A DNA stretch of 64,000 bases from an uncultured Bacillales bacterium. GTDB lineage: Bacteria; Bacillota_I; Bacilli_A; RFN20; CAG-826. Shown one piece after another: positions 7,013-64,000 of the stretch. Each line of letters opens with the position of its first letter. Position 1 is the stretch's first letter. The position numbers and the translations under genes were made by a program. The DNA lies in the NCBI GenBank assembly GCA_947302535.1, contig CAMYVX010000004.1, forward strand, positions 221-64,220, read 5' to 3'. Below the pieces are notes generated by a model. It did no database searches. It saw only the letters and a list, made by a program, of their open reading frames with translations, and was not told where the DNA came from.

Positions 7013-7014
7013 TT

Positions 7015-7782: not shown

Positions 7783-7785
7783 ATT

Positions 7786-8319
7786 ATGAAACCAAAATTA
7801 GATTGTGTTTTAGTGGTTGAAGGGACACAAGACGCTTCCCTAATCTCTTCTTTATACGATGTTTGTATAGTGACCACAAATGGATACGAATGTCCTAAAG
7901 CTGAAATTGACTTTTTAAATAGGGCCAGTAGACTCTATCCAATTGTTATTCTTACTGATAGTGATGAGGCTGGAGAGAGTATACGAGTTAAACTGTCATC
8001 TATTAATAACACACAGCATGTTAGAGTAGATCCAAGTAAGTGTGACAAAAGGAATAAACACGGTGTTGCTGAATGTGATATTTACGAAATTAAGCGCGTT
8101 TTATCGCAATTTTCACATCAAAAGACGCAAAATTTTAGTTCAAACATCGAATTAAATGATTTAGCAAATATCGGATTGGATAAAGCAAAAAGAGAATATG
8201 TAGCCACTAAATTGAGTTTAGGTAAATGTAATAGCAAAACATTCATTAAACGAGTCAATTTGCTTGGAATTACATTAGACAATATAAAGGATGTATTAAG
8301 GGAATATGATAATCGATAG
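7786..8319 (+). CDS. rnmV: Ribonuclease M5 (Toprim domain)
   Basis: Toprim motifs VVEGTQD and LTDSDEAG. Conserved neighbour of ksgA in Firmicutes. Confidence 0.85.
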   Translation: MKPKLDCVLVVEGTQDASLISSLYDVCIVTTNGYECPKAEIDFLNRASRLYPIVILTDSDEAGESIRVKLSSINNTQHVRVDPSKCDKRNKHGVAECDIYEIKRVLSQFSHQKTQNFSSNIELNDLANIGLDKAKREYVATKLSLGKCNSKTFIKRVNLLGITLDNIKDVLREYDNR

Positions 8320-13745: not shown

Positions 13746-14823
13746 CTAACACTTTTTTGGTAATTTTATTTAATTCATCAAGATTCTCGATAACATCTTT
13801 TGCTAAGGCTATTTGAGTTCTTGCTCTTAGTAAGTTATGAGCTTTTTTACTAACGTGGAAATAGACATCACCTTTAAGATAATCTTCCAAGAAACGACAC
13901 GCCAACTCAATGGCGATGATATATATGCTCATAGGAAGAAGCTCTTTTTCTCTACGAGTTAAATCATTCTTCATTCTCGACGCATATCCCTCTAAGTAGG
14001 CTTGATAAATTTCCTTGTTCACTTTGAGTTTGCTCAAGTCTTCGCTATCTTCATTATCGCCAGTAAATAATGATCTAAGAGCGTCACCGAAGTCATATAA
14101 GCAACTTCCTGGCATAATGGTGTCTAAATCGATAACGCACTTTACTGAACCATCGTTTTTATCAAACAAGACATTATTAATCTTTGGGTCATTGTGGGTA
14201 ATGCGCATAGGAATGGTCTTATTCTCAATACCTTTAATGATTTGAGAAATACCATCTTTTTGTTTTGTTAAATATTCGACCTCTTCTTTACAAGAATCTA
14301 GACGTCCAAAACTATTCTCTTTAACCGCCTTCATGAGATTTTTATATCTTATAGGGGTGTTATGGAAATCTTTAATGATTTCAAAAATGAGTTTTGGATC
14401 TAATGTTGATAATTTGACATGTAAGTCACCAAACGCTTCACCGGTTTTTTTGACTAATGATAAATCATTGATTTCTTCGTAACACACAGTGTCTTCCACG
14501 AATGTGTACATACGGAAATAATGTAATTTATCAGAATAATAATTCGCTCCATCAAAAGTTTTAACAACTTCCAAAGTCGTAGAACCATGGTTGGCTAAAT
14601 GTTTGGTAACAATATTAATATTTCTCATCAACATCTCAACATCGCCAAAAGCATAGGAGTTAATGATTTGATAGATATAACGATTTTCTGTTGTCTCAAT
14701 CAAAAAAGTTTTGTTAATGTGGCCGTTGCCATACTCCTTAACATTGGTTATTTTTCCGTTGAAGCGGAAGAAGAATATAGATGTTGTAATTAAATGATTT
14801 AATGTCATGACTCGTTCTCGCAA
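13738..14823 (-). CDS. nahK: N-acetylhexosamine 1-kinase-like phosphotransferase (APH/choline kinase fold)
   Basis: Motifs GNGHINKTFL, RITHNDPKINNVLFD and IDLDTIMPGSCLYDFGD closely match, from memory, the Bifidobacterium longum NahK motifs GDGHINTTYL, RVTHNDTKLNNILMD and IDLDTIMPGSMLFDFGD. Confidence 0.75.
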   Translation of the reverse strand: MRERVMTLNHLITTSIFFFRFNGKITNVKEYGNGHINKTFLIETTENRYIYQIINSYAFGDVEMLMRNINIVTKHLANHGSTTLEVVKTFDGANYYSDKLHYFRMYTFVEDTVCYEEINDLSLVKKTGEAFGDLHVKLSTLDPKLIFEIIKDFHNTPIRYKNLMKAVKENSFGRLDSCKEEVEYLTKQKDGISQIIKGIENKTIPMRITHNDPKINNVLFDKNDGSVKCVIDLDTIMPGSCLYDFGDALRSLFTGDNEDSEDLSKLKVNKEIYQAYLEGYASRMKNDLTRREKELLPMSIYIIAIELACRFLEDYLKGDVYFHVSKKAHNLLRARTQIALAKDVIENLDELNKITKKVLEK

Positions 14824-49314: not shown

Positions 49315-49534
49315 AGTGTCAATATTATATAGAAAGAAGAATAATTTTACATTAGTAAACTCTCTTATTTGTCATAATTCATTAAACAAAATAACCTTCA
49401 TTATCAATGTCTCTATATAAACGAAACAACATACATTGAAATATATAAAATTTATACAGTGAAAAAGTTTTCAAAAAAGATAAAAAGAGAGCCTTAAGAT
49501 TGCTATAATGTTAACAAGCATTTTGGAGGTCTTT

Positions 49535-50755
49535 ATGGAAATTATCATCATCGTTCTTTCTATCTTAATTCTTATAGGCTTAATCGTTATTTTTGTTTTA
49601 CTTCTTAAGAACAACAAGAAGAGTGTTGAAGTCACTCCTTCTAGTGTTGATTTAAAAGAACTTGGGGCGATTCAAAAGCAGATAGAGCTTCTATCTAACC
49701 AAATGAAAAGCGATATTGAACTTGCTGTTTCTAAAGAGATGAATAAAGTTAATGAACAATCATTAAAGACTAGTGAAAACCAAAATGAGAAGCTTGAAAG
49801 ATTTCAAAGAAATATCAATGAGTCTTTTGAAATGAAGTTTGAATCTTTAAATCGTCAAATTAACGACAAGTTAAAAGAGATGAATGAAAAGGTCGATAAT
49901 AAACTCGCTGAAGGCTTTAAAGGGACAACAGAAACCATTGCCCAAGTTAGAGAAAGACTCCAGGCTATTGATGACGCGCAAAAGAATATTGAAAATCTCT
50001 CTAAGGATGTTGTTTCCTTAAAGACTGTTCTTGAAGGTAACCAAAGCCGTGGACAATATGGAGAATATCAGTTAAGCATGGTGCTTCACAATGTCTTTGG
50101 CGACACGATTGGTTGCTATGAAGAACAATATACGATGAAAAGAGTCAAAGATGGAAATGATGTCCGCGCGGACGCAGTGGTGTTTATGCCTGAACCAAAT
50201 AAAATGATCTGTATTGACTCTAAATTCCCATTCCAAGATTACTCTCGTTTACTCGACGCTGATAGTAGTGAAGAAAGAGAAAACTTAAAAAAAGAGTTCG
50301 GAAATGCCGTAAAAAAGCATATTACTACGATAAAAGACAAATATATTGTGGAAGGTAAGACCGCTCCTGAAGCATTAATGTTTATTCCTAATGATGGTGT
50401 TTTTGCCTTCATTCATCATGAGTTAGAAGATGTTGTTGACTATGCCCGAGAAAGAAGAGTCATTCTCACCTCTCCTAGCACATTGCCCGCTATTCTATTG
50501 ACTATTAACATGGTGAAGATTGAAGTTGAAAGAGCAAAGAATGTAAGAGAGATATCTAAACATCTTAGTCGTTTAGGAAAAGACTTTGAAATGTTTGGAC
50601 GTGAGTGGGAACAATTCTCTAGCCAATTAGCGCTCGCTGGTAGAACTCGTGAAAAACTTAATACTCGCGTAGAGAAGATTTCCTCAAAATTTGAAAGTAT
50701 CTCTTCTTCCTCCCCTATGCTAGAAGACAATCTTTCTGATGATATCAATGATTAG
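49535..50755 (+). CDS. rmuC: DNA recombination protein RmuC
   Basis: N-terminal TM helix, coiled-coil region and a C-terminal RmuC nuclease-like domain. Preferred start is MEIIII… at 49535 with the RBS GGAGG upstream; the track starts at 49508. A TATAAT box lies at 49504..49509. Confidence 0.8.
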   Translation: MEIIIIVLSILILIGLIVIFVLLLKNNKKSVEVTPSSVDLKELGAIQKQIELLSNQMKSDIELAVSKEMNKVNEQSLKTSENQNEKLERFQRNINESFEMKFESLNRQINDKLKEMNEKVDNKLAEGFKGTTETIAQVRERLQAIDDAQKNIENLSKDVVSLKTVLEGNQSRGQYGEYQLSMVLHNVFGDTIGCYEEQYTMKRVKDGNDVRADAVVFMPEPNKMICIDSKFPFQDYSRLLDADSSEERENLKKEFGNAVKKHITTIKDKYIVEGKTAPEALMFIPNDGVFAFIHHELEDVVDYARERRVILTSPSTLPAILLTINMVKIEVERAKNVREISKHLSRLGKDFEMFGREWEQFSSQLALAGRTREKLNTRVEKISSKFESISSSSPMLEDNLSDDIND

Positions 50756-50825: not shown

Positions 50826-50901
50826 GGGTCTGTAGCTCACCTGGGAGAGCGCATCGTTCGCAACGATGAGGCAGCCGGTTCGATCCCGGTCAGATCCACC
50901 A
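50826..50901 (+). tRNA. tRNA-Ala with anticodon CGC
   Basis: Manual fold of the 76-nt sequence GGGTCTG TA GCTC ACCTGGGA GAGC G CATCG TTCGCAA CGATG AGGCA GCCGG TTCGATC CCGGT CAGATCC A CCA. It has the G3:U70 wobble pair (alanine identity element), discriminator A73 and an encoded CCA. The anticodon loop is TTCGCAA, reading anticodon CGC. Confidence 0.85.
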
Positions 50902-51097
50902 GAAATACCCGCTACCAGCTTTGCTGGTAAACATAGATAAGAAGTCAATCTACGGGAAAGATTTCAAAACACAAGAAGGATGATAATCCATCCTTGGTAA
51001 GTATAGCCCCCATTTATGTAACTATACGAAAGCATTTGAGTCATAGAGATTATTCGCTAGCTTGTTGGGGCAAGCGGCTTGATGCGAAATCATCTTC

Positions 51098-51289
51098 CTA
51101 TTTGGAAGATTTTTTCTTTTCAAGAACGTCAATTAACTCCTCGTCTTCTTTTGATAAATGCCAATTGAGAAATGGCTTGGAGAAATACTTTTGGGGAATG
51201 TTTTCAATCCTAACGACGCAAAGATAAGCGGGGCTGTCATCTTTAGGGTTTGGATTACTATTCATCTGAATATATGTGTCGTCGGCCAA
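51098..51289 (-). CDS. Doubtful small ORF abutting repeat A1
   Basis: 63 aa from a TTG start that lies inside the repeat boundary. No recognisable domain. It may be a gene remnant or spurious. Confidence 0.15.
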   Translation of the reverse strand: MADDTYIQMNSNPNPKDDSPAYLCVVRIENIPQKYFSKPFLNWHLSKEDEELIDVLEKKKSSK

Positions 51290-51698
51290 ACTCGTTTATT
51301 CGGTTTTGCACAAAACGACTTATCCAACATAGATGAGGCCTCCGTGTGAGGTCTTTTCTTGTGTCTCAGACCAGGCTCGAACTCCCGACCTCTTGCGAAC
51401 GATGCGCTTTCCCAGCATGAGCTAGCCATATTCGAGTTCTAAGGAACGTTTATATAAATATAAAGCATTTACTTGCTTGCCTGATTTCTATGTCCCAGAT
51501 GGCTTGTTTTTCAAATGTCTCTCATGGTGTGACAAAAAGAGCTGTCTATATAACGTATAGTATTGATGTGAGCAATCGAAGTAGCCTCACGCCTCATTAT
51601 AAACTCCATCTCACATATTTTAAGTTCATTTTACCAAAGCGCATATCTAAAGCTGGCCTACTTGCTACTTCAGGGCTGGCTTTTTCTTTGCTTTAACA
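51277..51698 (+). repeat. Repeat A, copy 1 (about 420 bp)
   Basis: Near-identical to 53039..53462, and its first 92 bp also recur at 57905..57996. It contains the palindrome GTTTTGCACAAAAC, a CCTC-CGTGT-GAGG hairpin followed by TCTTTTCTT, and at 51368..51428 (reverse strand) a degenerate tRNA-Ala-like segment that shares the 15-mer GCGCATCGTTCGCAA with the real tRNA. The track ORF 51490..51696 (MSQMACF…) lies inside it and is probably non-coding. Confidence 0.85.
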
Positions 51699-52085
51699 TT
51701 GTTAACGATGCTTACACTAGGTATGCTATGTAGTTGTGGGGGATATGTTAAGAATTATTCTGCAACCATTTTGATTACTTCTTGTCAAGGTGATGAAGCA
51801 AGTATGAAATTTGATACATTTAATGGAACGTATAATTTCAAATTAAGAAGAGATAATATGGCTGAGTATACACTTGATTATGAAGCAAGTCTAGCTGAAG
51901 GTGAAATGAGTGTTTATATCGGAGTTGATGGTGAAAAAGAATTATTATTTGTAGTTAAGGGTGGAGAATCCTACGACGAAACGATTACACTTCATAATAA
52001 ATATGATAATGAAAAAACAATCTACATTATTCTTGAATCGACAGGTAAATGTGTAGATGGTGATTTTGAGTTTGAGTACAATTAA
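51699..52085 (+). CDS. Hypothetical small secreted or lipoprotein-like protein
   Basis: 128 aa with a short hydrophobic N-terminus containing Cys residues (MLTMLTLGMLCSCGG). The called start is TTG; an ATG lies at 51708. It begins exactly where repeat A1 ends. Confidence 0.45.
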   Translation: MLTMLTLGMLCSCGGYVKNYSATILITSCQGDEASMKFDTFNGTYNFKLRRDNMAEYTLDYEASLAEGEMSVYIGVDGEKELLFVVKGGESYDETITLHNKYDNEKTIYIILESTGKCVDGDFEFEYN

Positions 52086-52134
52086 TTTAAGTGAAACAAA
52101 CAAATAAATTAGAATTTGTAAAGGAGAAACAACG

Positions 52135-52917
52135 ATGAAAATTGACGTTAATGAATTGTTTGAAGAACTTGGAAGCCTTTCGCAAGTAGAAGCGATTGCT
52201 CTTGGTGGGTCAAGAGCGACTGGTAGAAATGATGAAAAATCAGATTACGATGTGTATGTGTACATAACAAGCAGTATTGATGAAAATGTGCGAAGAAATA
52301 TTCTGGAAAAATACTGCAGATATATGGAAATCGGGAATTCCTTTTGGGAACTTGAAGATGATGTTACCTTAAATGATGGAATTGATATGGACATCATTTA
52401 CAGAAATATGCAGGATTTTGAAGACATGGTTTCCTCTGTTGTAATAGACTGTGTGCCATGTAATGGCTATACCACTTGTATGTGGCATAATCTCATTACC
52501 GCTAAAATTGTAATAGATAAAAATGGAAAACTGAGCGCTCTACAGGAAAAATATCGGATTCCATATCCAAAGAAGCTAAAGGAGAAGATCATATCCAATA
52601 ATCTAAAGCTTCTTAGTGGTATGTTACCGTCATTTGATATGCAGATAAAAAAGGCAGAGAATAGAGGGGACCTTGTAAGCGTCAATCATAGGGTTGCTGA
52701 ATTCCTCGCAAGTTATTTCGATATTATTTTTGCACTGAATGAGATGACACACCCTGGGGAGAAGAGAATGCAAAGTATTTGTTCTGAGGAATGCAAGATT
52801 TTGCCTAATCGCTTTGACGAAAATCTGAACAGATTATTTGCAGGAATGTTCAGAGAGAGTATATCAGATGTAATAAATGATATGATAATTGAGATAAAAA
52901 CGATTACGAAGATGTAG
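52135..52917 (+). CDS. Pol-beta superfamily nucleotidyltransferase with a C-terminal helical domain (LnuB/ANT-like architecture)
   Basis: N-terminal motif LGGSRATGRNDEKSDYDVYVY (GS…DxD) and a downstream DMDIIY motif, 260 aa. This is the architecture of lincosamide and aminoglycoside nucleotidyltransferases. Confidence 0.6.
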   Translation: MKIDVNELFEELGSLSQVEAIALGGSRATGRNDEKSDYDVYVYITSSIDENVRRNILEKYCRYMEIGNSFWELEDDVTLNDGIDMDIIYRNMQDFEDMVSSVVIDCVPCNGYTTCMWHNLITAKIVIDKNGKLSALQEKYRIPYPKKLKEKIISNNLKLLSGMLPSFDMQIKKAENRGDLVSVNHRVAEFLASYFDIIFALNEMTHPGEKRMQSICSEECKILPNRFDENLNRLFAGMFRESISDVINDMIIEIKTITKM

Positions 52918-53038
52918 TCAAATTCCTATTTATCGATTAGATATTATTATTAAACGATTACAAGCAGGTGGTTTCATTATTAAACGATTATATTTAAATT
53001 GTATTAATATTGTCGTACCTTGCCACATAAGTAAATCA

Positions 53039-53462
53039 TGTCGTTGGTCAAACTCGTTTATTCGGTTTTACACAAAACGACTTATCCAACATAGATGAGG
53101 CCTCCGTGTGAGGTCTTTTCTTGTGTCTCAGACCAGGCTCGAACTCCCGACCTCTTGCGAACGATGCGCTTTCCCAGCATGAGCTAGCCATATTCGAGTT
53201 CTAAGGAACGTTTATATAAATATAAAGCATTTACTTGCTTGCCTGATTTCTATGTCCCAGATGGCTTGTTTTTCAAATGTCTCTCATGGTGTGACAAAAA
53301 GAGCTGTCTATATAACGTATAGTATTGATGTGAGCAATCGAAGTAGCCTCACGCCTCATTATAAACTCCATCTCACATATTTTAAGTTCATTTTACCAAA
53401 GCGCATATCTAAAGCTGGCCTACTTGCTACTTCAGGGCTGGCTTTTTTTCTTGCCTTTAACA
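53039..53462 (+). repeat. Repeat A, copy 2
   Basis: About 98% identical to 51277..51698, differing by a few substitutions and a small indel near the 3' end. The track ORF 53252..53473 is the same frame as in copy 1. Confidence 0.85.
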
Positions 53463-53506
53463 TAGTTAACTAAAATAGCATTCAGTACCCCGTGCGATCA
53501 TCAGTG

Positions 53507-53594
53507 TTTTCTTGTTCGCGAATGGATTGAATCACGACATAATACGGATAGTGACTTTTAGACAAAACTGAATGGATGAGTTTGTACAACTACA
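53507..53594 (+). repeat. Repeat B, copy 1 (about 88 bp)
   Basis: TTTTCTTGTTCGCGAATGGATTGAATCACGACATAATACGGATAGTGACTTTTAGACAAAACTGAATGGATGAGTTTGTACAACTACA. Related copies lie at 59027..59114, 63144..63231 and, partially, 63953..64000. Its 3' 49 bp is an imperfect inverted repeat of the 5' 49 bp of repeat A. Confidence 0.8.
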
Positions 53595-54063
53595 ATATGA
53601 TTTTGGATAATCTAACATTTTCTTAATATCATGTGTAATCATGTAACCATTTAATTTTGTTTTTGAATTCTCGCTTCTTGTTTCTACTAAAACGACGATA
53701 AATGGATGATGGCCATTTCTTCTATAAAAACGAAAATGATACTTGTCGTGGCCATTATACTTTCTGTATCTAGACATATAAAAAATCACCTTCCTATATA
53801 TCGTTCCTTAAGAAAGAGTTGTGATTGGGGGGAACGATATATTTAGGCAATTAAACAATATAGTGCAGCGATTGTTCCTAATGTTTGTACATATAGAGTA
53901 CTTTGGGAATAAAGCAATAGCAATAAAAACTTTGTATTTATTGAATGTTAGCAAAAATAAGCTTGTTACATAGTAACAATTAGCAGTATTGCGTCGTGAC
54001 TGCTTGCTTCCTCTTCTTCTTCTTATAATTTGACTATAAAAATATAAGGGAAGCCTATAAATC

Positions 54064-54810
54064 ATGCTGTTTTGTCTTTTCAAGCAAAACACCATGAAAA
54101 AAGTTGTTATGAAAACGCTATTAGAAAATATACTTTCAAATATCATCAATTTAGGAATTGTTTTTACAAACGAATTAGAATTTCAGTTTTATCTTGCTCA
54201 AGAATTGAAATCAAATTCAACTGTAAAAGATGTTCTATTTGAGGTTCCTTCTTTTTCAAAACCTTGGTCTATTGTTAGTAAAAATTTAAAATCAATATCA
54301 AAAAAGGATAAACAATATACAGATTTGATTGCTTGTTTAAAAAATGGAATGCATGTAGCAATTGAATTAAAATATAAAACACCTAACAAAGCACATATTT
54401 ACTTGACTTCTAATGGCCCTGTGCTAACAATGGCACAAGGCGCTTATTATTTAGGTGCTTATTCTTTTCTGAGAGATGTTGAAAGACTAGTTAATGTTAT
54501 CTCAAAGAAAAGATTTTATGTAAACAATATTACCATTGATGAAGCTTATGCTATTTTTTTAACGAACGATTCAAATTACAGGAATAATTCTTTCACTAAA
54601 GGAAGTGGCGTTTGGAAGAAATTTGCGATTAATGATGGTGCAACAATCCCAAATAAGATTTTAACGACCCCTAGTAGTTATAATAAATTACATTTACCAC
54701 AATTAAATCTTTCTGGTTTAAAAACGAAGGGGGTTTTTAATTGGACTCCAAAATCCACTATAACTAATAATTCTTCTGATTTTGCATATATAGTTTTGGA
54801 GGTTAAATAA
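54064..54810 (+). CDS. Hypothetical protein with a PD-(D/E)xK nuclease-like motif
   Basis: 248 aa with D…(hydrophobic)xELKYK arrangement (YTDLIACLKNGMHVAIELKYK). The true start may be MKKVVMK at 54094. Confidence 0.5.
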   Translation: MLFCLFKQNTMKKVVMKTLLENILSNIINLGIVFTNELEFQFYLAQELKSNSTVKDVLFEVPSFSKPWSIVSKNLKSISKKDKQYTDLIACLKNGMHVAIELKYKTPNKAHIYLTSNGPVLTMAQGAYYLGAYSFLRDVERLVNVISKKRFYVNNITIDEAYAIFLTNDSNYRNNSFTKGSGVWKKFAINDGATIPNKILTTPSSYNKLHLPQLNLSGLKTKGVFNWTPKSTITNNSSDFAYIVLEVK

Positions 54811-54813
54811 AAC

Positions 54814-57540
54814 ATGAAAAACAAAAAATGTATTTTAGGTATTAGTATAATTGGATCAGTTCTGCTAGCTTGTTCAACTCTCTCATTGATTATTAATACA
54901 AATTTTTCTATTGATTTTTCTTACGCGGGTAATACAACATATGGTATCTCTTTTAATTCCTCGAAAAATAAATTTCACTCATATACAGGCAACACCGCTT
55001 ATGATGGTGAGGCCACAATTAAAACAGAATTAGATAATGATGTTAACTTCTCTTATTACCAGATTAAAGGTGTGACCACTACATGGCACGTTTTAGGTAG
55101 TGGTGGTTATTTTTATAACACCGATCCAATTCACGGAATTGAAAGTATCACGTTGAATTTCAAAACCAACAATGCCGATTATGATATTCTCTATTCCTAT
55201 GATAAAAGTTTTGATCATTCTCAATCATTTGTCTCATCTACTACAGGTGGTACGACATATAGTTTTGATGGATATAAGCCAAACTATTTTAAAGTAGTTA
55301 ATAATAGTGGCGCTAACTTTAATATTTCTTCAATCGATATCGTCTTATCTTGTTTGAATAATTATCCAACCTTATCTATCAGTAGTGAGAACCCAACAAT
55401 GGGCACTGTTTCTGGTGGAGGAGTTAAGATTCAAGGAACACAAACCACAATTGTGGCCACTCCAGATCAAGGCTATAGATTTGTTGGCTGGTATGATGGA
55501 GAGACTCTAATTTCCTCTCAATCATCATATACATTCACTATTGAAAATGATGATGTAACTTATGTTGCTAGATTTACATATCAAACATATAACTTAGTGG
55601 TTCAATCTGAATCGTCAACAAAAGGGACTGTTTCTGATTCCACAGGACAATATGATTATCTAACCCCAGTTACTATTGAAGCCACACCAAAACCAGGTTA
55701 TTCATTCAATGGCTGGTACGAAGGAAATAATCTTGTTTCTAACAGCAACCCATATAATTTCACAATGCCTTATACAAACAAGACATATACCGCTAAATTT
55801 AGTACAAATTCCTATGAATTAACTCTTGTGAACGCTAATAGTGAGCTAGGTAGTATTACTGGAGCGGGAACTAAAACATATGGTAGTAGTGTGACTATTA
55901 CCGCCACTCCTAATACCGGTGTATCTTTCCTAGGCTGGTACAATAGTGGTGATAATCTAATCTCTTCTTTAACATCCTATACATTCAATATGCCTTATGA
56001 AGATTTAACATATACAGCTAAATTTGCATGGACTCCATATTCAGTTAGTTTAAGCATTAATGATGATTCTATGGGCTCTGTCAGCGGCAGTGGCTCTTAT
56101 ACTTATGGACAAGAAGTATCTTTAGTGGCCACTCCTAACGAACATTATTCATTCTTTGGTTGGTATGATGGAGAAACATTATTATCTCAAAAAACAACAT
56201 ATGTATTTGATATGCCTGATAACTCATTAGATTATCAAGCTAGATTTGTCCAAAACCATAGCCTCTATATTTATAGCGAAGACGAATCTAAAGGAACCGT
56301 TTCTTATCCAAATGAATGGGGGGAAGGGTTAGAAGTAACTATAACTGCGAACGCGGATACTGGATACGCTCTCGACTACTGGTATGATGAAGATTTAAAC
56401 CCAGTTTCCTATGATTTTTCTTATACATTTATCATGCCAAATAATGATGTTACACTCTGGGCAGCATTTACCCAAGGATATACGTTAACAGTGATATCTA
56501 GTGATGAAACAAAAGGCGCTGTCACTGGTAGCGGACAATATGTTGCAGGCAGAAATGTCACTGTTACAATGAACTATCTTTCCGGAACATTTAAGGGCTG
56601 GTTTGATAGTAATAATCAATTAGTTAGTATAGATAATCCTTACACATTTGTTATGCCAACCAACAATTATTCTCTTGAAGCTAGATTTATAACGCAAGAA
56701 GAAGAATGGAATATAGCCCATGGTGTAACACCAATTATTTCTAATGATGGAAAAACAATCACATATGGTTTATACCCTCAAACAAATATTGATGATCCTT
56801 CATTGATATCCACACTTAATGGTTTAACCACTCCTGAAACGAATGGATGGTACTTATACGAAGATGAATACTATGCAAAAACAAGCGCCCATCCATATTT
56901 TTCGAATTATAAGTTTGATAATGGTGAAACAATTGTAAGTGGTACAACTTATTGGTTTAAATGTGAGCCTATCGTTTGGAATGTTTTAAGCAACAATAAC
57001 ACAGAGTATTCTATCCTCTCATCTTTATTAATAGATTCACATAGATATAACGAATCTTATGATGGCACTAAAGATGGCCATTATGCAAATAATTACAAGT
57101 ATTCGGAAATAAGAAGCTGGTTAAATGATGACTTTTATAATTCTGCATTTGCTCTAGACAATAGTTATATCCAAACAACAAACGTCGATAACAGTGCTTC
57201 CACTACAGATAGTTCAAGTAATCAATATGCCTGTGAGAATACAAATGACAAGGTATTCTTACCTAGTTATAAAGACTATCTTAATAGCTCATACGGATTC
57301 TCAACATCAACCAGTTCAACCAGTTCTAGATACTGCAGAACTACTGACTGGGCAAGAGCAAGAGGCTCAAGCTATTACAGTGGCTCTTATCAATATAATG
57401 GCGAATATTGTACCCGTTCTCCTTACAGCTACGGCCCCTACTATGCGTGGATTGTCTATGGCGATGGTAGTCTCCGCACCAACGACATCTGTTACAATGG
57501 TCGCAGTGTTCGCCCCAGCCTTTCACTTCATATTGCGTAG
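54814..57540 (+). CDS. Large surface lipoprotein with about 8 tandem InlB-B/Listeria-Bacteroides-type repeats and a distinct C-terminal domain
   Basis: Signal peptide with lipobox LLAC. Repeated modules of about 90 aa carry the signature G(S/T)VSG…TATPN.GY.F.GWYDG…YTF.MP…Y.A.F. The C-terminal domain of about 290 aa ends …YNGRSVRPSLSLHIA, reminiscent of FISUMP/DUF1566-like C-terminal domains. Confidence 0.8.
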   Translation: MKNKKCILGISIIGSVLLACSTLSLIINTNFSIDFSYAGNTTYGISFNSSKNKFHSYTGNTAYDGEATIKTELDNDVNFSYYQIKGVTTTWHVLGSGGYFYNTDPIHGIESITLNFKTNNADYDILYSYDKSFDHSQSFVSSTTGGTTYSFDGYKPNYFKVVNNSGANFNISSIDIVLSCLNNYPTLSISSENPTMGTVSGGGVKIQGTQTTIVATPDQGYRFVGWYDGETLISSQSSYTFTIENDDVTYVARFTYQTYNLVVQSESSTKGTVSDSTGQYDYLTPVTIEATPKPGYSFNGWYEGNNLVSNSNPYNFTMPYTNKTYTAKFSTNSYELTLVNANSELGSITGAGTKTYGSSVTITATPNTGVSFLGWYNSGDNLISSLTSYTFNMPYEDLTYTAKFAWTPYSVSLSINDDSMGSVSGSGSYTYGQEVSLVATPNEHYSFFGWYDGETLLSQKTTYVFDMPDNSLDYQARFVQNHSLYIYSEDESKGTVSYPNEWGEGLEVTITANADTGYALDYWYDEDLNPVSYDFSYTFIMPNNDVTLWAAFTQGYTLTVISSDETKGAVTGSGQYVAGRNVTVTMNYLSGTFKGWFDSNNQLVSIDNPYTFVMPTNNYSLEARFITQEEEWNIAHGVTPIISNDGKTITYGLYPQTNIDDPSLISTLNGLTTPETNGWYLYEDEYYAKTSAHPYFSNYKFDNGETIVSGTTYWFKCEPIVWNVLSNNNTEYSILSSLLIDSHRYNESYDGTKDGHYANNYKYSEIRSWLNDDFYNSAFALDNSYIQTTNVDNSASTTDSSSNQYACENTNDKVFLPSYKDYLNSSYGFSTSTSSTSSRYCRTTDWARARGSSYYSGSYQYNGEYCTRSPYSYGPYYAWIVYGDGSLRTNDICYNGRSVRPSLSLHIA

Positions 57541-57904
57541 TTTACAAAACAATAATCGACCACTTATCAAAAGCAAAAGAGGTGGCATTATGCAAGAAAG
57601 AAAAATAAAATGATTAGCAATGGATTAAAGAATAAACCTCTATGATACCGGCAAGCAAAGTCAATTGTCCCGTTTTTGTATAATGATTTGAAAAGCGATG
57701 ATAAGTGACAAAAACTGCATAAATAATAGCATTTTCGCCGCAAAACCCTAATATTTTAAAATTTTATTGTAACTTATATATGGTGTAGAAGCCAGAATAA
57801 TACACTAGCTCAATTAAAAACAGGACATTGAGTTCTCCTGTCCCGAAAATATAAGAGGTAGCATGTTATTATCGTAGCGCTTCAGATCCACCATAAATAT
57901 GAAC

Positions 57905-57996
57905 TGTCGTCGGCCAAACTCGTTTATTCGGTTTTGCACAAAACGACTTATCCAACATAGATGAGGCCTCCGTGTGAGGTCTTTTCTTGTGTCTCA
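57905..57996 (+). repeat. Repeat A, copy 3 (5' 92 bp only)
   Basis: Identical to the first 92 bp of repeat A, then diverges into a GACCTC-CTCGT-GAGGTC hairpin followed by TTTTT (58005..58026) and a CATTGTTCGAAACAATG palindrome. A 12-nt copy of the tRNA-Ala 3' end (TCAGATCCACCA) lies at 57883..57894. Confidence 0.8.
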
Positions 57997-58065
57997 AACT
58001 CGCCGACCTCCTCGTGAGGTCTTTTTCATTGTTCGAAACAATGTATAATTACTATTGAAAGCAAA

Positions 58066-58938
58066 ATGATTAGATTTGTAAATTTTCAACATTGTTATTA
58101 TCAACAAGTTTGTGATTTTTTGATTGAAATTAACAAAGAGAATAATTATCACAACAATTGGAATTGGGCGCGATTTGAATGGATGTATGAGCACCCTTTA
58201 ACCCAAAAAGAACTACTACATTATATGGGTCTATGGTTTGATGATAATCATCTTGTGGGTGCGGCTTTAATCGATATGTTTTTTGGTGAAGCGTTCGTTG
58301 GTGTACTAAATAAATATCAAAGCTTATATCCAGAAGTATTAAAATACGCTTTTGATAATTTAAAAGATGATCAAGGCTTAGGCATATCTTTCCGCGATGA
58401 AAATATAGATGAAATTAATGAAGCGATTAAACAAGGCTTTAGTAAAGTTGAAGTAGAAGAAATAGATTGTGAAATTAATCTTGATAAGGAATTTGCTATT
58501 TCCTTGCCTGAAGGATTTAGTGTTGAAACGTTTGATGCTGAAAAAAACGCTAAAGAAATAGAATGGTTATTTTATCAGGGTTTTGATCACGGAAATGATA
58601 AAGAAGAATTTCTAAAACAACATAAAGAGCCAACAGGATCTAGACCTCATTTTAATCCATATCTGTGTATTGTTATTAGAAATAAACAAGGTGAACTGGT
58701 GGCTAGCGCCTCAACTTGGTATGACCCAAGAACTGATTACGCTTATGTAGAACCAGTTTGTGTCATTCCTGAATGTCGAAAGATGGGCTTAGGAAAGGCT
58801 GCGGTCTACACCGCGATTAATCACGCTAGAGAATTAGGTGCAAAAAGAGCAATAGTTAATTCTGGACAAGAATTCTACCAAAGGATAGGTTTTAGAAAGA
58901 AAAACCATTACTCCTTCTATTGGAAAAAAGAACTATAA
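58066..58938 (+). CDS. GNAT family N-acetyltransferase
   Basis: C-terminal GNAT motif A (VIPECRKMGLGKAAVYTAINHARELG), 290 aa. Confidence 0.75.
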   Translation: MIRFVNFQHCYYQQVCDFLIEINKENNYHNNWNWARFEWMYEHPLTQKELLHYMGLWFDDNHLVGAALIDMFFGEAFVGVLNKYQSLYPEVLKYAFDNLKDDQGLGISFRDENIDEINEAIKQGFSKVEVEEIDCEINLDKEFAISLPEGFSVETFDAEKNAKEIEWLFYQGFDHGNDKEEFLKQHKEPTGSRPHFNPYLCIVIRNKQGELVASASTWYDPRTDYAYVEPVCVIPECRKMGLGKAAVYTAINHARELGAKRAIVNSGQEFYQRIGFRKKNHYSFYWKKEL

Positions 58939-59026
58939 AGTCACCCTTAAACATTTCTACATTTACACTTTTTCAAAAATAACATAATCAAAGTAAAAGA
59001 ATTGGTCGAGTGAAATATCTCGGTTT

Positions 59027-59114
59027 TTTCTTGTTCGCGAATGAATTTAAACACGACATAATACGGATAGAGACTTTTGTGCAAAACAAGATGGATGAGT
59101 TTGTGTAACTACAG
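59027..59114 (+). repeat. Repeat B, copy 2
   Basis: TTTTCTTGTTCGCGAATGAATTTAAACACGACATAATACGGATAGAGACTTTTGTGCAAAACAAGATGGATGAGTTTGTGTAACTACA. It follows the GNAT gene. Confidence 0.8.
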
Positions 59115-59168
59115 AAAATCCCCCCGTTTATTGGACCGTTTCGGTACAATGATTTAGGGGGGTTTTTA

Positions 59169-59762
59169 TTACTCTTTGTAGAGAAAATCAATCTTAAAGA
59201 GGTTGGTCTTTAAGTCCGCCATAAGCTGTTTAATCTCGGCTTTATAGGATTGATTTTTGTGATGGATTAAATATGTTAATGCAGAGACAAAACCACCATA
59301 GATGAATGATGCGGTGACTGGGATTGAATACTTAAATGGTCTAATCTTATCGATTTCCACTAATAGTTCACTGATACCATCTTCACAGACTCTGGTTATG
59401 ATGTTGATGAGTTCAAAACTGTAGTTCTTTTCTAGTGAACGGATATATTCAATATTTGTTTCAATATATTCGATAACCTTACCCAATATACTGATGAGGT
59501 ATTCAGCAATATCATCGATTGATGTTGTTTGTTTCTTTGGAACCTGATTCATGATGCTATCTTTGATTTCGTTAATCGCATCATCTAATAGGAGATACTT
59601 ATCTTCATAATACTTATAGAATGTCATCCTATTAATCAGCGCGTGCTCGCATATATCTTTAACTGTAATCTTCTCTAATGGACGATCCTTTAATAATGCG
59701 AGAATTGATTCTCTTAATACCTTTCTAGTCTTTTGAATTCTTAAGTCTTCTTTGTACTGCAT
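59169..59762 (-). CDS. TetR/AcrR family transcriptional regulator
   Basis: N-terminal helix-turn-helix (ITVKDICEHALINRMTFYKYY), 197 aa. Divergent from the MMPL transporter gene. Confidence 0.85.
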   Translation of the reverse strand: MQYKEDLRIQKTRKVLRESILALLKDRPLEKITVKDICEHALINRMTFYKYYEDKYLLLDDAINEIKDSIMNQVPKKQTTSIDDIAEYLISILGKVIEYIETNIEYIRSLEKNYSFELINIITRVCEDGISELLVEIDKIRPFKYSIPVTASFIYGGFVSALTYLIHHKNQSYKAEIKQLMADLKTNLFKIDFLYKE

Positions 59763-59946
59763 AATTGATACACTTCCAATCTTTTGTATTAATAACTCTA
59801 CAATTACGGGTATTTATATACCCTATGTTTTTTGAATTGCTTGATTAATTAATGTTTTATACTAAAATGATTTACGAATCAATAGAAAATAATACAAGTG
59901 TATTGTTAAGTCTATTGCAGTATTAGTTTTAGGAGGACCAAATTAC

Positions 59947-62900
59947 ATGAAAAAAATTTGTTCATTCATTGTAAGGTTTAGATATTGGCTCTTAGGCTTA
60001 TTCGCTATCTTAGTTGGTTCATCTTGCATTCTCATGCAACACGTGAATATCAACTATAACTTAATGCAATATCTAGACAAGGGTTCATCATCCACAGTGG
60101 CGTTAACTGTCATGGAAGATGAATTCGGAAGTGTCGGTCAATGTCAAGTATTAGTGACCCACCTCACCTATCAAGAAGCAGAAGAAGCCAAAGACAAGAT
60201 TGAAAGTGTCGAAGGTGTTGCTTCTGTTGTCTTCGCTTCCAGTGAAGCAGATTCTGATTATTACAATCCTGTGACAGGTGACGCTTTATACAAAGTGTTC
60301 TTAACCACAAGTAACTACGATAAAGCGACATATAAAACACTAGATAGGATTAGAGCGGAATTAAAAGATTACACAATCTCATTAAATGGTGGTTCAGTTG
60401 AATCTGAATTCTTAACTAAGGCACTCGCTAGAGATATGACGATTATTCTAACAATTGTTGTAGTGGTGGTTTTGGGTATTTTATTACTCACATCATCTTC
60501 ATATGTTGAACCACTTATCTTCTTATTTGTCGCTGGTGGTGCGATTCTCATCAACCTCGGTACAAACATCCTATTGAACGCAATTCCATATATCGGTAAT
60601 TCCATGTCATTCATCACGAAGAGCATTGCCGCGGTTATGCAATTAGCGTTATCCATGGACTATGCGATTATTCTCCTTCATACGTATAAAGAAGAAAAAG
60701 AACATTACGATGACAATAAAGAAGCGATGAAAGCCGCTTTAAGAAGAGCGTTCGCTCCTGTATCCTCATCATCCATTACCACAATCGCTGGTTTAGTGGC
60801 CTTGATGTTCATGAGCTTCTCCATCGGATTTGACGTTGGTCTAGTTCTCGCAAAAGGTATTTTACTCAGCTTATTATGCGTGTTCTTATTCATGCCTGCA
60901 TTATTACTTACATTTGATAAATTACTCGCAAAAACCTCGCAAAAACCAATCGATCGTATCATTATTGGCAAAATCAAAGCCCATCACTTAAAGAGAAAAC
61001 AACAAGGTAAGAAAGTCCATTCAATGGCTTCCTTCCAAAAGAAAACAAGAATCGTTGTTCCTCTTTTAGCGGTCGCCTTATTCGGTGTAGCTGCGGTGTT
61101 CAATTTCACCTCAACTTATAGCTTCACCCTTCAAGCATCAACGGATGCGAATTCCACGATTAACGTTGATGATAAAAAGATTACAGATGAATTCGGTACA
61201 CAAAATACCTTAGTCGTCTTAATTGAAAAGAAGGATAGACAAAAATCCGAAATCAAAGTGGAAGAAGAGGAAATCATCAACTACTTAAAGAACTATGAAT
61301 ACAATGGTGAAAAGGTGATTAACTCCGTTCAAGGTTATAGCACATACGGTGTATATAATGATTTAACCGCTGAACAATTCGCTGGATTATATCTCGATGC
61401 GGATATGTATAACGCAAACGTCAGAGGCGTTACAGTGTTATATCAATATCTCCAAGCCAGTGGATTAGCCTATCTCGATAGTGAAAATAACTTAAGAGCA
61501 AACGTTTATAACGTCGTTGCATTCGCTAAAGAGAATGAAGGTGCGAAAAAGATTACCGAACAATCTCAAGCCTTAATGGATAAAGTTGCTTCAGCCTATT
61601 ATGTGGAATTAACCAAAGAACAATTCGCTGCTGCGAACAATATCAACGCCACAATCGTTGAAAACATCTACTCCACAATGTCAGTGGAAAAAGCGACAAC
61701 ATATGATGTCTTAAAGTTCGTCCATGATAATAATTATGCTGTTGCAGCATTCACCAATATTCAAAACAACATCAATTCTTCTTATGAAGATTTGAAGACC
61801 AATGGTGTATTTAACGCTGATGGTTCAGTCAATGAAACCGTTGTCGGTGGTATGAAAGCATATTGTGATGCTTATGAAGCTGGTCAAGTTGATACAACAG
61901 ATCCTGCAAATCAACAAAAATATGCAACCTATAAGAAGATTGTTATTGAATTCAATAAAGAACAATTAATGGCTCAATACCCATTCATCACTGAAGATAC
62001 CGCTTCTGCCTTATTACAAGGTAAAGAAACAGTTCCTAACTATTTAGTGGTTCAAGCTTCTTCTCTTAACAATATCCCTGCTCAATATGGACAAGGTATG
62101 CAAGGGGTGATTAACGCTAAATATGCGGAAATCCCTGTTAAAGATGAAGTCATCACCAAAGAAGACGCCAAGATGAACTATGGTGTTGATGACCAAACTC
62201 TTGCTGCACTATATCAAAGTGGTGATATCACCAATGGTGTCTTATTCAAATTCTTAAGCGATAACAAATACTACACCAACGAACAATATCAAGGTCAAAT
62301 GCAAGCTAGATTCGATGCCAGCTATGAAGCATTCGCAAACTTTGAATCTGATAACTACATCAGAGTCATCTTCAACTTCAATATGCCAACATCTAGCAAA
62401 GACTCCTTCAAAGCAATTAACGAAATTAGCAATCACTTATATGGCACATATGATGATGTTAAATTGGTTTCGGAAACATTCGTGTATTCACAAATCAAAC
62501 AAGTCTTCAACCGTGACGTTGTCATCGTTAACATCATCTCATTCGTCGCTATCTTATTAATCATCGCTGTCACATTCAAATCAGCGTTCACCCCAGTATT
62601 ATTAACATTATTAATCCAAGGTGCTATCTGGTTCACAATGGGTATCTCCACAGTGTTTGGAAAAGAAATCTTCTTCATCTGTTACATCGTGGTTATGTGT
62701 GTCCAAATGGGTGCGACAATTGACTATGGTATCTTATTAACTAATAACTATATTCAAAATAGAAAGAAATATAGTAGAAAAGACTCTATGGCTTTAGCGA
62801 TGAACTCATCCATCGCCACAATCTTGACCTCTGGTTCAATTCTCGTCTTAGCAACATTAATCATTGGGTTAGTTTCTAAGGTTTCCATCGTTTCAGACTT

Positions 62901-63114
62901 AGGTATGCTCTTATCAAGAGGCTGCTTAATCTCCTTATTGATGATTATCTTCGTCTTACCACAGTGCTTAATTATCTGTGATAAGGTGATTGAAAAAACA
63001 TCAGTTAAGACCAAGTTTGCTGATCCAAATAATGATGTCTTAGATGAAGACCTCATTGAAATTGATGATAATGGTGAAACCAAACAAATCGAATCTCATG
63101 AAGAGAGTAAATAA
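59947..63114 (+). CDS. MMPL-family (RND superfamily) membrane transporter
   Basis: 1055 aa with two TM bundles, each followed by a large extracytoplasmic domain, as in MMPL/YdfJ. Paired with the TetR regulator. Confidence 0.85.
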   Translation: MKKICSFIVRFRYWLLGLFAILVGSSCILMQHVNINYNLMQYLDKGSSSTVALTVMEDEFGSVGQCQVLVTHLTYQEAEEAKDKIESVEGVASVVFASSEADSDYYNPVTGDALYKVFLTTSNYDKATYKTLDRIRAELKDYTISLNGGSVESEFLTKALARDMTIILTIVVVVVLGILLLTSSSYVEPLIFLFVAGGAILINLGTNILLNAIPYIGNSMSFITKSIAAVMQLALSMDYAIILLHTYKEEKEHYDDNKEAMKAALRRAFAPVSSSSITTIAGLVALMFMSFSIGFDVGLVLAKGILLSLLCVFLFMPALLLTFDKLLAKTSQKPIDRIIIGKIKAHHLKRKQQGKKVHSMASFQKKTRIVVPLLAVALFGVAAVFNFTSTYSFTLQASTDANSTINVDDKKITDEFGTQNTLVVLIEKKDRQKSEIKVEEEEIINYLKNYEYNGEKVINSVQGYSTYGVYNDLTAEQFAGLYLDADMYNANVRGVTVLYQYLQASGLAYLDSENNLRANVYNVVAFAKENEGAKKITEQSQALMDKVASAYYVELTKEQFAAANNINATIVENIYSTMSVEKATTYDVLKFVHDNNYAVAAFTNIQNNINSSYEDLKTNGVFNADGSVNETVVGGMKAYCDAYEAGQVDTTDPANQQKYATYKKIVIEFNKEQLMAQYPFITEDTASALLQGKETVPNYLVVQASSLNNIPAQYGQGMQGVINAKYAEIPVKDEVITKEDAKMNYGVDDQTLAALYQSGDITNGVLFKFLSDNKYYTNEQYQGQMQARFDASYEAFANFESDNYIRVIFNFNMPTSSKDSFKAINEISNHLYGTYDDVKLVSETFVYSQIKQVFNRDVVIVNIISFVAILLIIAVTFKSAFTPVLLTLLIQGAIWFTMGISTVFGKEIFFICYIVVMCVQMGATIDYGILLTNNYIQNRKKYSRKDSMALAMNSSIATILTSGSILVLATLIIGLVSKVSIVSDLGMLLSRGCLISLLMIIFVLPQCLIICDKVIEKTSVKTKFADPNNDVLDEDLIEIDDNGETKQIESHEESK

Positions 63115-63125
63115 CAACATTCATT

Positions 63126-63150
63126 AGCCACCTCACTGGTGGCTTTTCTT
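63126..63150 (+). terminator. Intrinsic terminator after the MMPL gene; its T-run is the start of repeat B3
   Basis: AGCCACC-TCACT-GGTGGCT hairpin followed by TTTTCTTG. Confidence 0.7.
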
Positions 63151-63231
63151 GTTCGCGAATGATTATAAACACGACATAATACGGATAGAGACTTTTGTGC
63201 AATTCTTGATAAGTGAGTCTGTGTAACTACA
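63144..63231 (+). repeat. Repeat B, copy 3
   Basis: TTTTCTTGTTCGCGAATGATTATAAACACGACATAATACGGATAGAGACTTTTGTGCAATTCTTGATAAGTGAGTCTGTGTAACTACA. Confidence 0.8.
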
Positions 63232-63325
63232 AGTTAGAAGGTCGCTAGTAATGGAGACTTTTTGTGTGGCACTTTTGTGATAGTTATTTGATATAATGAA
63301 ATCACTTATTCAAGGAGAAAAAGTT

Positions 63326-63613
63326 GTGAAAAAAGAATTACTAAAAGGTCTTAGCAATGAACAAATCGCTAAAATTGAGAAATGTAAAAACACAGACGAA
63401 ATATTAGCTTTAGCTAAATCTGAAGGCATTGAACTTACCGATGAACAATTAGAAGCTGTCAATGGCGGATGTGGTAAATCAAAAGAATGGTACGAAATTG
63501 ACAATATGCAATGTCCAGAATGTCTTAACAGCCACTGTATGGAAAAAGTCTCAGACGCATGGTATAGATGCAAGTACTGTAATAAAATTACAGTCAATAA
63601 AAATCTTCAATAA
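63326..63613 (+). CDS. Nif11-like leader, double-glycine, Cys-rich precursor peptide 1 (putative RiPP/bacteriocin precursor)
   Basis: Leader (V)KKELLKGLSNEQIAKIEKCKNTDEILALAKSEGIELTDEQLEAVNGG, then core CGKSKEWYEIDNMQCPECLNSHCMEKVSDAWYRCKYCNKITVNKNLQ with 6 Cys. Preferred start is GTG at 63326 with the RBS AAGGAG at 63313..63318; the track ORF starts at 63296. Confidence 0.7.
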   Translation: MKKELLKGLSNEQIAKIEKCKNTDEILALAKSEGIELTDEQLEAVNGGCGKSKEWYEIDNMQCPECLNSHCMEKVSDAWYRCKYCNKITVNKNLQ

Positions 63614-63630
63614 ACGATAAAGGATTTGTT

Positions 63631-63921
63631 TTGAACATGAAACAAGAATTATTGAAAGGTTTAACCAAAGAACAAATTGAAAAAATTAAAGCGTGTAAGA
63701 ATCAAGAAGAATTATTGGCGCTAGCCAGAGCTGAAGGAATCGAACTTACTGACGAACAACTCACCGCTATTAATGGTGGTGGTGCTTGTAGTGTTATTTC
63801 AGATATTGGAGATTATATCAATCCATATGATTGTCCAAGATGTGGCAGTAATAATATTAAAGACAAAGGCACCTATTATATCTGCCAAAGCTGTGGCTAC
63901 AAAATTGAAAATTACGATTAA
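63631..63921 (+). CDS. Nif11-like leader, double-glycine, Cys-rich precursor peptide 2 (paralogue)
   Basis: Leader MNMKQELLKGLTKEQIEKIKACKNQEELLALARAEGIELTDEQLTAINGGG, then core ACSVISDIGDYINPYDCPRCGSNNIKDKGTYYICQSCGYKIENYD, which has a zinc-ribbon-like CPRC…CQSC pattern. Confidence 0.7.
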   Translation: MNMKQELLKGLTKEQIEKIKACKNQEELLALARAEGIELTDEQLTAINGGGACSVISDIGDYINPYDCPRCGSNNIKDKGTYYICQSCGYKIENYD

Positions 63922-63934
63922 ACAAACGAGTATA

Positions 63935-63957
63935 ACCGAGCTTAGCTCGGTTTTTTC
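63935..63957 (+). terminator. Intrinsic terminator after precursor peptide 2
   Basis: ACCGAGC-TTA-GCTCGGT hairpin followed by TTTTTTCTTG. Confidence 0.7.
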
Positions 63958-64000
63958 TTGTCTGAGCCATCGTGCGAACGATGAGCGAGTTAAAACCCCC
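63953..64000 (+). repeat. Repeat B-like element (variant), truncated by the window end
   Basis: TTTTTTCTTGTCTGAGCCATCGTGCGAACGATGAGCGAG… Same TTTTCTTGT entry point as the other B copies, then an anticodon-arm-like CATCG-TGCGAA-CGATG resembling the tRNA-Ala anticodon arm. Confidence 0.55.

Follow-up and report, generated by a model that had tools for sequence, protein, structure and literature searches.

How does a bacterium come to carry unrelated accessory genes one after another behind a single tRNA gene, set apart by two recurring repeats? The question is raised by a 64,000-nt stretch of contig CAMYVX010000004.1 (assembly GCA_947302535.1) from an uncultured Bacillales bacterium, hereafter the window, whose positions give all coordinates below unless another locus is named, and in which an array of cargo genes and repeats A and B occupies 50826-64000. 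A tRNA-Ala(cgc) call at 50826-50901 bears out the tRNA-Ala(CGC) that the original prediction, made from the sequence alone, had placed at the edge of the array; the same prediction took repeat B for an attC-like recombination site. We propose, with a probability of roughly 85%, that A is instead the left and B the right end of DNA transposons that form one family, carry cargo and are non-autonomous. The array at tRNA-Ala is built by transposons and is not integron-like.

Both repeats are real. Repeat A at 51277-51706 matches 53039-53470 (432 nt, 98%), and its truncated copy at 57905-57996 is 100% identical to the first one over 92 nt; repeat B occupies 53507-53594, 59026-59113 and 63144-63231, with pairwise identities of 74-97%. 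What had been overlooked is that the first ~60 nt of A recur in inverted orientation as the last ~60 nt of B. This shared module, which we call X, runs rightward at 51277, 53039 and 57905 and leftward where it ends at 53594, 59113 and 63231, and a degenerate 39-nt pattern for it matches the window five times against 0 matches expected by chance. No copy of A or B lies in the remaining 50 kb of the window. Two details of the earlier description have to be corrected: a supposed variant of B at 63953 is, by eye, the T-run of a terminator and, behind it, an antisense tRNA-like fragment like that inside A, and B copies do not all sit directly 3' of a cargo gene, since B1 is preceded by non-coding DNA.

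The evidence that carries the transposon reading is an interrupted gene and its empty site. Removal in silico of 51277-53594 together with one ATATG fuses two minus-strand open reading frames (ORFs) in frame into a 118-aa ORF, whose product matches, at 99% identity and along its entire length, a homologue (P0001) encoded on L030, a 652-nt metagenome contig; 31 other homologues exist, most of 115-124 aa. L030 matches the window at 51276-50865 (98%) and at 53820-53595 (100%), and because these two matches overlap by exactly one ATATG 5-mer, L030 represents the empty site of a strain that is nearly identical. Together with the restored ORF, the empty site identifies 51277-53594 as a transposon of 2,318 bp that has terminal inverted repeats and a 5-bp duplication but lacks a transposase. 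Within it, the second left end (A2) and B1 make up a 556-bp unit without cargo, which is found alone in relatives. A copy of the whole element in L010 is 94.8% identical to that of the window, where the adjacent Y-family polymerase gene reaches just 70%, and a third copy, in L059, is 92.9% identical; judged from these identities, the element has moved between species. As for the gene that it interrupts, the family (P0001-P0032) has no Pfam match and is represented by 32 or more members from gut and rumen assemblies.

The ends of the elements are imperfect terminal inverted repeats of ~60-70 nt with tips 5'-TGT…ACA-3'. TGT opens nearly all of the 81 distinct end copies, the five exceptions being TGC (twice), TTT, AAT and GGT; the consensus starts TGT(C/A)GT, and the end subtypes of the family begin TGTCGTCGGCCAAAC, TGTCGTAGTCCAAAG, TGTAGTTACACAAAC, TGTACTTATCTAAAC and TGTTGTAATTATCTAAAC. 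Each end contains two ~18-bp direct sub-repeats, 24 bp apart, with a mean identity of 65% against a background of 27 ± 8% (64 distinct ends). The ends are also asymmetric, with a hairpin terminator inside the left one and a conserved head of ~35 nt before the right one. Such end modules would insulate the transcription of the cargo, the terminator acting inside the left end and the promoter-like head at the right end, and the non-coding body of A is probably a promoter and leader.

A degenerate X pattern retrieved eight stretches in six metagenome-assembled genomes of rumen Erysipelotrichaceae/Bacilli and 21 metagenome contigs, the matches clustering at one locus within each genome, and about 25 tRNA-Ala neighbourhoods were fetched through homologues of the adjacent Y-family polymerase. 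In these relatives X modules most commonly occur as head-to-head pairs, B-type first and A-type second, between unrelated genes and often between tandem copies of precursor-peptide genes. Read from the junctions, 13 of 21 such pairs are spaced by exactly 5 nt, the expected product of successive insertions at one target. Exact duplications, each of a different sequence, surround elements in relatives: AATAT around a copy of the 2.3-kb element that directly follows the tRNA (L010), CGAAA three times around elements of 456 and 378 bp (L023), GTAGC around an element of 563 bp holding a single peptide gene and a GNAT element of 807 bp (L001), GAAAA around 5.2 kb (L029), ACATT three times around two different ~3-kb elements (L035) and AGTTT three times around several elements, one of 6.2 kb (L053). 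The chance of a 5/5 match is ~0.002 per pair. The 5-mers vary from site to site and hence derive from the target, which excludes recombination at a core site. When elements insert one after another at a single point, they line up head to tail, with the same 5-mer between neighbouring units.

At the tRNA-Ala site, stacks comprise two to four or more elements, and strains with an identical polymerase protein carry different ones (L035 versus L037-L039). The elements range from 378 bp to ~6 kb and often hold a single gene, with cargo-less versions of 378-606 bp; between species and strains the cargo varies among precursors of ribosomally synthesized and post-translationally modified peptides (RiPPs), GNAT proteins, toxin-antitoxin pairs, ATPases and surface proteins. 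In these respects the original prediction was right: the region is accessory, its cargo comes in discrete units that differ between strains and species and end exactly at the repeat edges, individual units are present or absent behind identical core genes, and the repeats are confined to one locus per relative genome. They are neither generic repeats spread over the genome nor parts of an invariant syntenic region.

It was this organization that had suggested an integron-like cassette array, with attC-type hairpins of single-stranded DNA (ssDNA) and a tyrosine recombinase encoded outside the window. The resemblance goes some way: like integron arrays, including the Vibrio superintegron with its VCR repeats, the locus is a chromosomal platform of stacked, discrete single accessory genes between conserved and partly palindromic junctions of ~130-200 nt, strain-variable in content and with classes of cargo that resemble those of cassettes. 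The mechanism, in contrast, is transposition with target duplication rather than IntI acting on attC, and each unit brings both of its own ends. The tips are TGT…ACA rather than GTTRRRY cores, the 5-bp duplications differ in sequence with the target, and one element sits inside an ordinary gene whose empty site was recovered. Repeat B, folded as ssDNA on both strands, does no better than shuffled sequences (z-scores of +0.09 to +2.27), and even the full junction folds weakly (z ~ -1.7), so that an attC hairpin is missing, as is an integrase; in none of about 25 genomes does a tyrosine or serine recombinase adjoin the array. Moreover, the units have their own terminators and promoter-like regions, and TetR lies on the opposite strand. 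We consider an integron-like array extremely improbable.

The head-to-head doublets formed by most ends call to mind another kind of system, in which repetitive extragenic palindromic (REP) sequences, as bacterial interspersed mosaic elements (BIMEs) or REP doublets forming hairpins (REPINs), are mobilized as ssDNA hairpins by a Y1 transposase, either a REP-associated tyrosine transposase (RAYT) or one of IS200/IS605 type. The tip GT(A/C)G resembles the REP motif GTAG, and the A-type arm is able to fold back into a hairpin in which the subtypes differ by compensatory changes; the B-type arms, on the other hand, do not fold. Two junctions have copies of insertion sequence (IS) IS605 at or beside them: in L010 an IS200/IS605-type element is inserted exactly at the right-end tip (13945-14424), and in L016 another lies inside the terminator hairpin just upstream of the right end (6776-8263). 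The tnpA and tnpB genes of these copies, next to B, had prompted us to consider REPIN/RAYT, but the copies proved to be ISs that had inserted independently, one into a junction and one into a terminator hairpin, which suggests that junctions prone to form hairpins are attractive to single-strand transposons. Y1 transposition is not known to duplicate its target, whereas 5-bp duplications are the rule here; units carry up to 6 kb of cargo, they occupy one locus per genome instead of being scattered, and no Y1 gene was found beyond the two sporadic IS605 copies. We give this explanation next to no credence.

With the transposon reading, attention turns to the target. Most insertions lie 12-16 bp past the CCA of tRNA-Ala(CGC) with the left end tRNA-proximal, and occasional ones lie elsewhere. 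In relatives an A-type X directly follows tRNA-Ala(cgc), its TGT tip standing 12-16 nt past the CCA in 14 distinct genomes, to which two with a further end subtype are added; the left end always faces the tRNA, though the spacer sequences are unrelated. In L010, L023 and L035, new elements entered exactly at the tRNA-proximal position and reused the same 5-mer.

Tn7-like elements are characterized by duplicating 5 bp, by TGT/ACA tips that are essential, by arrays of sites to which the transposase binds, by control of their orientation and by attachment sites at tRNAs (PMC11406308, PMC11014353, PMC8649781). Set beside Tn7 at glmS, Tn6022/AbaR at comM and the tRNA-targeting I-B2, I-D and V-K CRISPR-associated transposons (CASTs), the present family has in common the 5-bp target duplication (ATATG with the empty site L030, and six further exact cases in relatives), the TGT/ACA tips, a fixed distance and a single orientation downstream of a conserved gene (12-16 nt, 16 genomes), accessory or defence-type cargo, and multiple ends at one site after successive insertions. 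Its ends are asymmetric, and the repeated motifs in both of them may be transposase-binding sites. The family differs in the lack of tnsA, tnsB, tnsC and tniQ from every copy seen here and in the tiny size of its often single-gene elements. In this comparison the system appears to behave like a Tn7-like system; we do not file it as a member because no transposition genes were found in any element or locus examined and because stacking runs counter to target immunity. A DDE transposase of the TnsB/MuA/TniA/IstA kind would act in trans, and it would be accompanied by a target selector reading the tRNA-Ala gene, as TnsD and TniQ do for Tn7-like elements.

Several observations weigh against this interpretation. 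Foremost, a search for the enzymes was negative: neither a transposase nor an AAA+ regulator nor a TniQ-like gene turned up among the ORFs of at least 180 aa in 1-29 kb, which by Pfam are all housekeeping genes, dnaA included, or among the cargo ORFs of 49.5-64 kb (ORFs at ~29-48 kb were not scanned), so that the earlier statement that no integrase or transposase is visible stands for the parts examined. ORF and Pfam inspection likewise found none of these three between element ends in any related locus. Across about 60 related loci, the only transposases seen belong to unrelated IS605, IS66, IS110 and IS4 copies. Furthermore, some elements have no intact duplication, namely the GNAT element of the window at 57905-59113 (TGAAC versus GAAAA) and the element of L059 (AAAAT/GAATT). 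The patterns used to scan the collection are specific to two end subtypes, and copies with other subtypes elsewhere would escape them; most related loci are short metagenome contigs that end at the repeats, and the contigs of the same species all break there. Lastly, stacks of three or more elements have formed despite the target immunity expected of Tn7-like elements, for which immunity is normal and exceptions are known in Tn6022, and each end has two sub-repeats where Tn7 has three and four.

These last two points would be better accommodated if the transposons came from an ordinary IS family, like IS21, Tn552 or Mu, whose TGT…ACA ends contain several repeats, and not from a Tn7-like one, their clustering at tRNA-Ala reflecting vertical inheritance and a preference for insertion beside resident ends. 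Ends with two sub-repeats, here predicted to resemble binding sites, are closer to those of Tn552 or IS21 than to those of Tn7, the short spacers between abutted ends are reminiscent of the reactive tandem junctions of ISs, stacking conflicts with Tn7-type immunity, and one insertion is not at a tRNA. Such an origin is unlikely, yet it deserves to be taken seriously. It leaves the constant tRNA distance and the single orientation in 16 genomes with unrelated spacers to be accounted for, as well as the exact tRNA-proximal entry, with reuse of the 5-mer, in L010, L023 and L035, and genes of the IstA/IstB type are not present either.

Regarding the IS66-family copies mentioned above, one insertion of three genes lies inside the single X-bounded element adjoining tRNA-Ala in L041 and L042 (7276-9624); only some strains of one species have it, others, as a comparison with L044 shows, do not. 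Outside chromosomal loci, the two end patterns gave 0 matches each in viral contigs, and a cargo-less element compared with plasmids and phages returned tRNA-like matches only.

Non-autonomous transposons as such are already known; what is new here is a site-specific stack of non-autonomous, mostly single-gene transposons. Miniature inverted-repeat transposable elements (MITEs) and other non-autonomous derivatives, such as the Tn3-derived inverted-repeat miniature elements (TIMEs) and Correia elements, share with the present family the terminal inverted repeats, the duplication, the lack of a transposase, the presence/absence polymorphism, the existence of cargo-less versions (here 378-606 bp) and ends able to mobilize the DNA between them. 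The elements described here differ in being site-specific and confined to a locus instead of dispersed, and in that most copies carry cargo along with their own terminator and promoter-like modules.

Could the repeats be, rather than transposon ends, modules of transcription or regulatory RNA that tandem duplication and homologous recombination alone have spread through a locus of bacteriocin type? The junction does combine a promoter-like head (TTCGCG-N17-CATAAT) with an intrinsic terminator and the potential to form a long hairpin, and the repeats are interleaved with tandem peptide genes. Single B|A junction sequences fold into long hairpins; the RNAalifold consensus of 20 junctions is nevertheless just -3.8 kcal/mol, with two compensated pairs, and this weakness led us to drop a small RNA or attenuator at the junction as the primary explanation. 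The junction has no Rfam match. Regulatory modules of this kind cannot account for the interruption of an unrelated gene, with 5 bp duplicated and an empty site recovered, nor for different elements stacked behind identical 5-mers, and we regard them as very improbable as a full explanation. A transcriptional side-role of the ends is plausible, since the right end in L027 abuts the ribosome-binding site of a peptide gene.

Most elements contain an antisense tRNA-Ala-like pseudogene inside the left end (51366-51430 and 53129-53192 on the minus strand of the window; also L003, L005, L010, L012 and L037). Its ATCGTTCGC and GAGGTCGG-GAGTTCGA blocks are invariant even across diverged end subtypes, acceptor pairing is absent, and between some genomes the segment is conserved above the true tRNA (98.6% versus 92%). 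Examined as a structured RNA together with the A-body, it gave no convincing covariation, and in Rfam, at gathering and permissive thresholds, only tRNA reached threshold. A bolder version of the transposon reading sees in the locus an integron-like capture platform, where transposase-less single-gene mini-transposons are homed to tRNA-Ala(CGC) by enzymes supplied in trans, possibly with a new target selector that works without immunity; the antisense segment may then be a guide, decoy or recognition element in homing and not a relic. We hold this version to be quite doubtful.

How the window itself was assembled can be read from the features collected in Table 1. A degenerate copy of the 3' half of the tRNA, overlooked before, ends 11 nt before the third A copy. 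A tRNA and a degenerate copy of its 3' half around a segment of DNA are the usual footprint of tRNA-targeting islands integrated by tyrosine recombinases, and 50902-57893 carries that signature in its sequence, yet no integrase is present; the likeness is limited to this segment and does not extend to the repeat-bounded units. The GNAT element, the solitary right end at 63144-63231, for which neither a partner nor an intact duplication was found at 63231, and the peptide genes would be remnants of the original stack. A separate island would have inserted later between the tRNA and this stack, and the 2.3-kb family member would then have jumped into the island, into the 118-aa gene. The C6…G6 terminator that follows the GNAT element comes after the element in L059 and directly after the tRNA in L049.

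Table 1. Features of the array region, in window positions.
Feature	Position	Strand	Remarks
tRNA-Ala(CGC)	50826-50901	+	In relatives the attachment-site gene, element left ends 12-16 nt past CCA
DNA between tRNA and degenerate copy of the tRNA 3' half	50902-57893		~4.7 kb once the 2.3-kb transposon is subtracted
118-aa gene, 3' part	51098-51276	-	Split by the transposon
Target duplication copies ATATG	51272-51276 and 53595-53599		Directly outside the X tips
2,318-bp non-autonomous transposon	51277-53594	+	Left end A1, right end B1, second internal left end A2
Left terminal inverted repeat (module X, A-type)	51277-51336	+	Starts TGTCGTCGG; two ~18-bp sub-repeats 24 bp apart
Hairpin and T-run	51337-51372	+	Intrinsic-terminator-like, just inside left end
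Antisense tRNA-Ala-like pseudogene	51366-51430	-	22/23 identical to tRNA positions 50841-50863; 5-nt deletion in anticodon stem
Non-coding A-body	51431-51706	+	AT-rich TATAAATATA box; runs into cargo gene
Small lipoprotein-like ORF	51699-52085	+	Cargo; lipobox LCSC
Nucleotidyltransferase	52135-52917	+	Cargo; NTP_transf_2 and DUF4037 (Pfam)
A2 left-end block	53039-53470	+	Second copy: X, terminator, antisense tRNA-like segment, A-body
Right end B1	53507-53594	+	Conserved head TTCGCGAATG…CACGACATAATACGGATAG and inverted X module ending …CAACTACA
118-aa gene, 5' part	53600-53777	-	Split by the transposon
908-aa surface lipoprotein	54814-57540	+	InlB B-repeats, DUF6273; in tRNA-proximal island, outside X-bounded units
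Degenerate tRNA-Ala 3'-half copy	57852-57893	+	Ends in exact 12-mer TCAGATCCACCA; original tRNA/attachment junction
Second element (GNAT), at ancestral attachment position	57905-59113	+	11 nt past CCA of the tRNA remnant; left end A3 57905-57964, terminator to 57996, GNAT gene 58066-58938, right end B2 59027-59113
C6…G6 hairpin terminator	59114-59172		Conserved flank distal to attachment site
TetR and MMPL transporter genes	59169-63114		TetR 59169-59762, minus strand; MMPL 59947-63114 (Pfam)
Solitary right end B3	63144-63231	+	Abuts promoter region of peptide genes; left-end partner missing
Two precursor-peptide genes	63296-63921	+	Nif11-like leader, GG motif, CxxC…CxxC core
Terminator, then antisense tRNA-anticodon-arm fragment	63925-64000	+	Fragment CATCGTGCGAACGATG; not a B copy; cut by window end

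Around the attachment site, rmuC (49508-50755) stands between a Y-family polymerase/YolD pair and tRNA-Ala in the lineage of the window and a few relatives only (L032-L034, L059); in most relatives the polymerase gene directly adjoins the tRNA without rmuC. An exact-sequence look-up of the RmuC of the window returned no record. With dnaA at 1194-2564 on the minus strand, the attachment site lies ~50 kb from the likely replication origin.

The cargo was labelled by Pfam and, for selected ORFs, also by NCBIfam. Pfam agrees with the labels first given to the nucleotidyltransferase (NTP_transf_2/DUF4037), the surface lipoprotein (InlB B-repeat/DUF6273), the GNAT protein, TetR and MMPL; the ORF at 54064-54810, thought to be PD-(D/E)xK-like, has no match in Pfam or NCBIfam, and the two Nif11-leader peptides do match that leader, at sub-threshold scores only. 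In a relative (JAXFZD01), the same TetR-MMPL pair is bounded by diverged X ends, and single genes of the precursor-peptide family are the cargo of 563-bp elements in relatives.

The nucleotidyltransferase has a wider distribution of its own. The identical 260-aa protein occurs in 1,448 blocks of the assembly collection and falls into no NCBIfam resistance family, and its DNA core (52104-52944, ~840 bp) is 99.5-100% identical in unrelated contexts without X ends (L058, L060, L061, L063-L067): after tRNA-Leu, tRNA-Thr, tRNA-Met or a tRNA cluster, in a prophage-like region and beside a resolvase. Three of these loci contain a second, different element of ~1.3 kb, without recombinase or transposase (L060 9566-10842, L061 9658-10933, L064 1224-2500), that starts exactly past the …GCACCA end of tRNA-Leu(caa) or tRNA-Thr(cgt), ends in …GTGTAACGTTTCCA and includes repeated TTTAACGATTA and AGGGTATGCAAAA motifs along with the same nucleotidyltransferase gene. 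In the window, a TAAACGATTA motif occurs twice just 3' of this gene (52945-52992).

The precursor peptides form a family of ~95 aa with a Nif11-like leader, a GG cleavage motif and a zinc-ribbon-like CxxC…CxxC core. Their genes stand in tandem arrays of up to about eleven copies (63296-63921 in the window; L001 3165-5181; L026 5663-9802; L004 503-7013), each preceded by a conserved TGGCAC-N5-GTGAC box, and the arrays adjoin genes for radical-SAM proteins, HlyD-like proteins and C39-peptidase ABC exporters; in L026 the roughly eleven copies are followed by radical-SAM and peptidase-ABC-exporter genes.

The ends described here break short-read assemblies and should be annotated as transposon boundaries rather than as intergenic repeats. 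If identified, the trans-acting transposase and its selector could yield a compact site-specific insertion system for Firmicutes. For the bacteria themselves, the stack represents a different route to an integron-like outcome, in which accessory genes are gathered singly at a safe chromosomal site by miniature transposons, each bringing its own ends, terminator and promoter-like module. This explains why the locus differs between near-identical strains and how Erysipelotrichaceae-like bacteria of the rumen come to shuffle RiPP precursor genes, toxin-antitoxin pairs and further small cargo among themselves.

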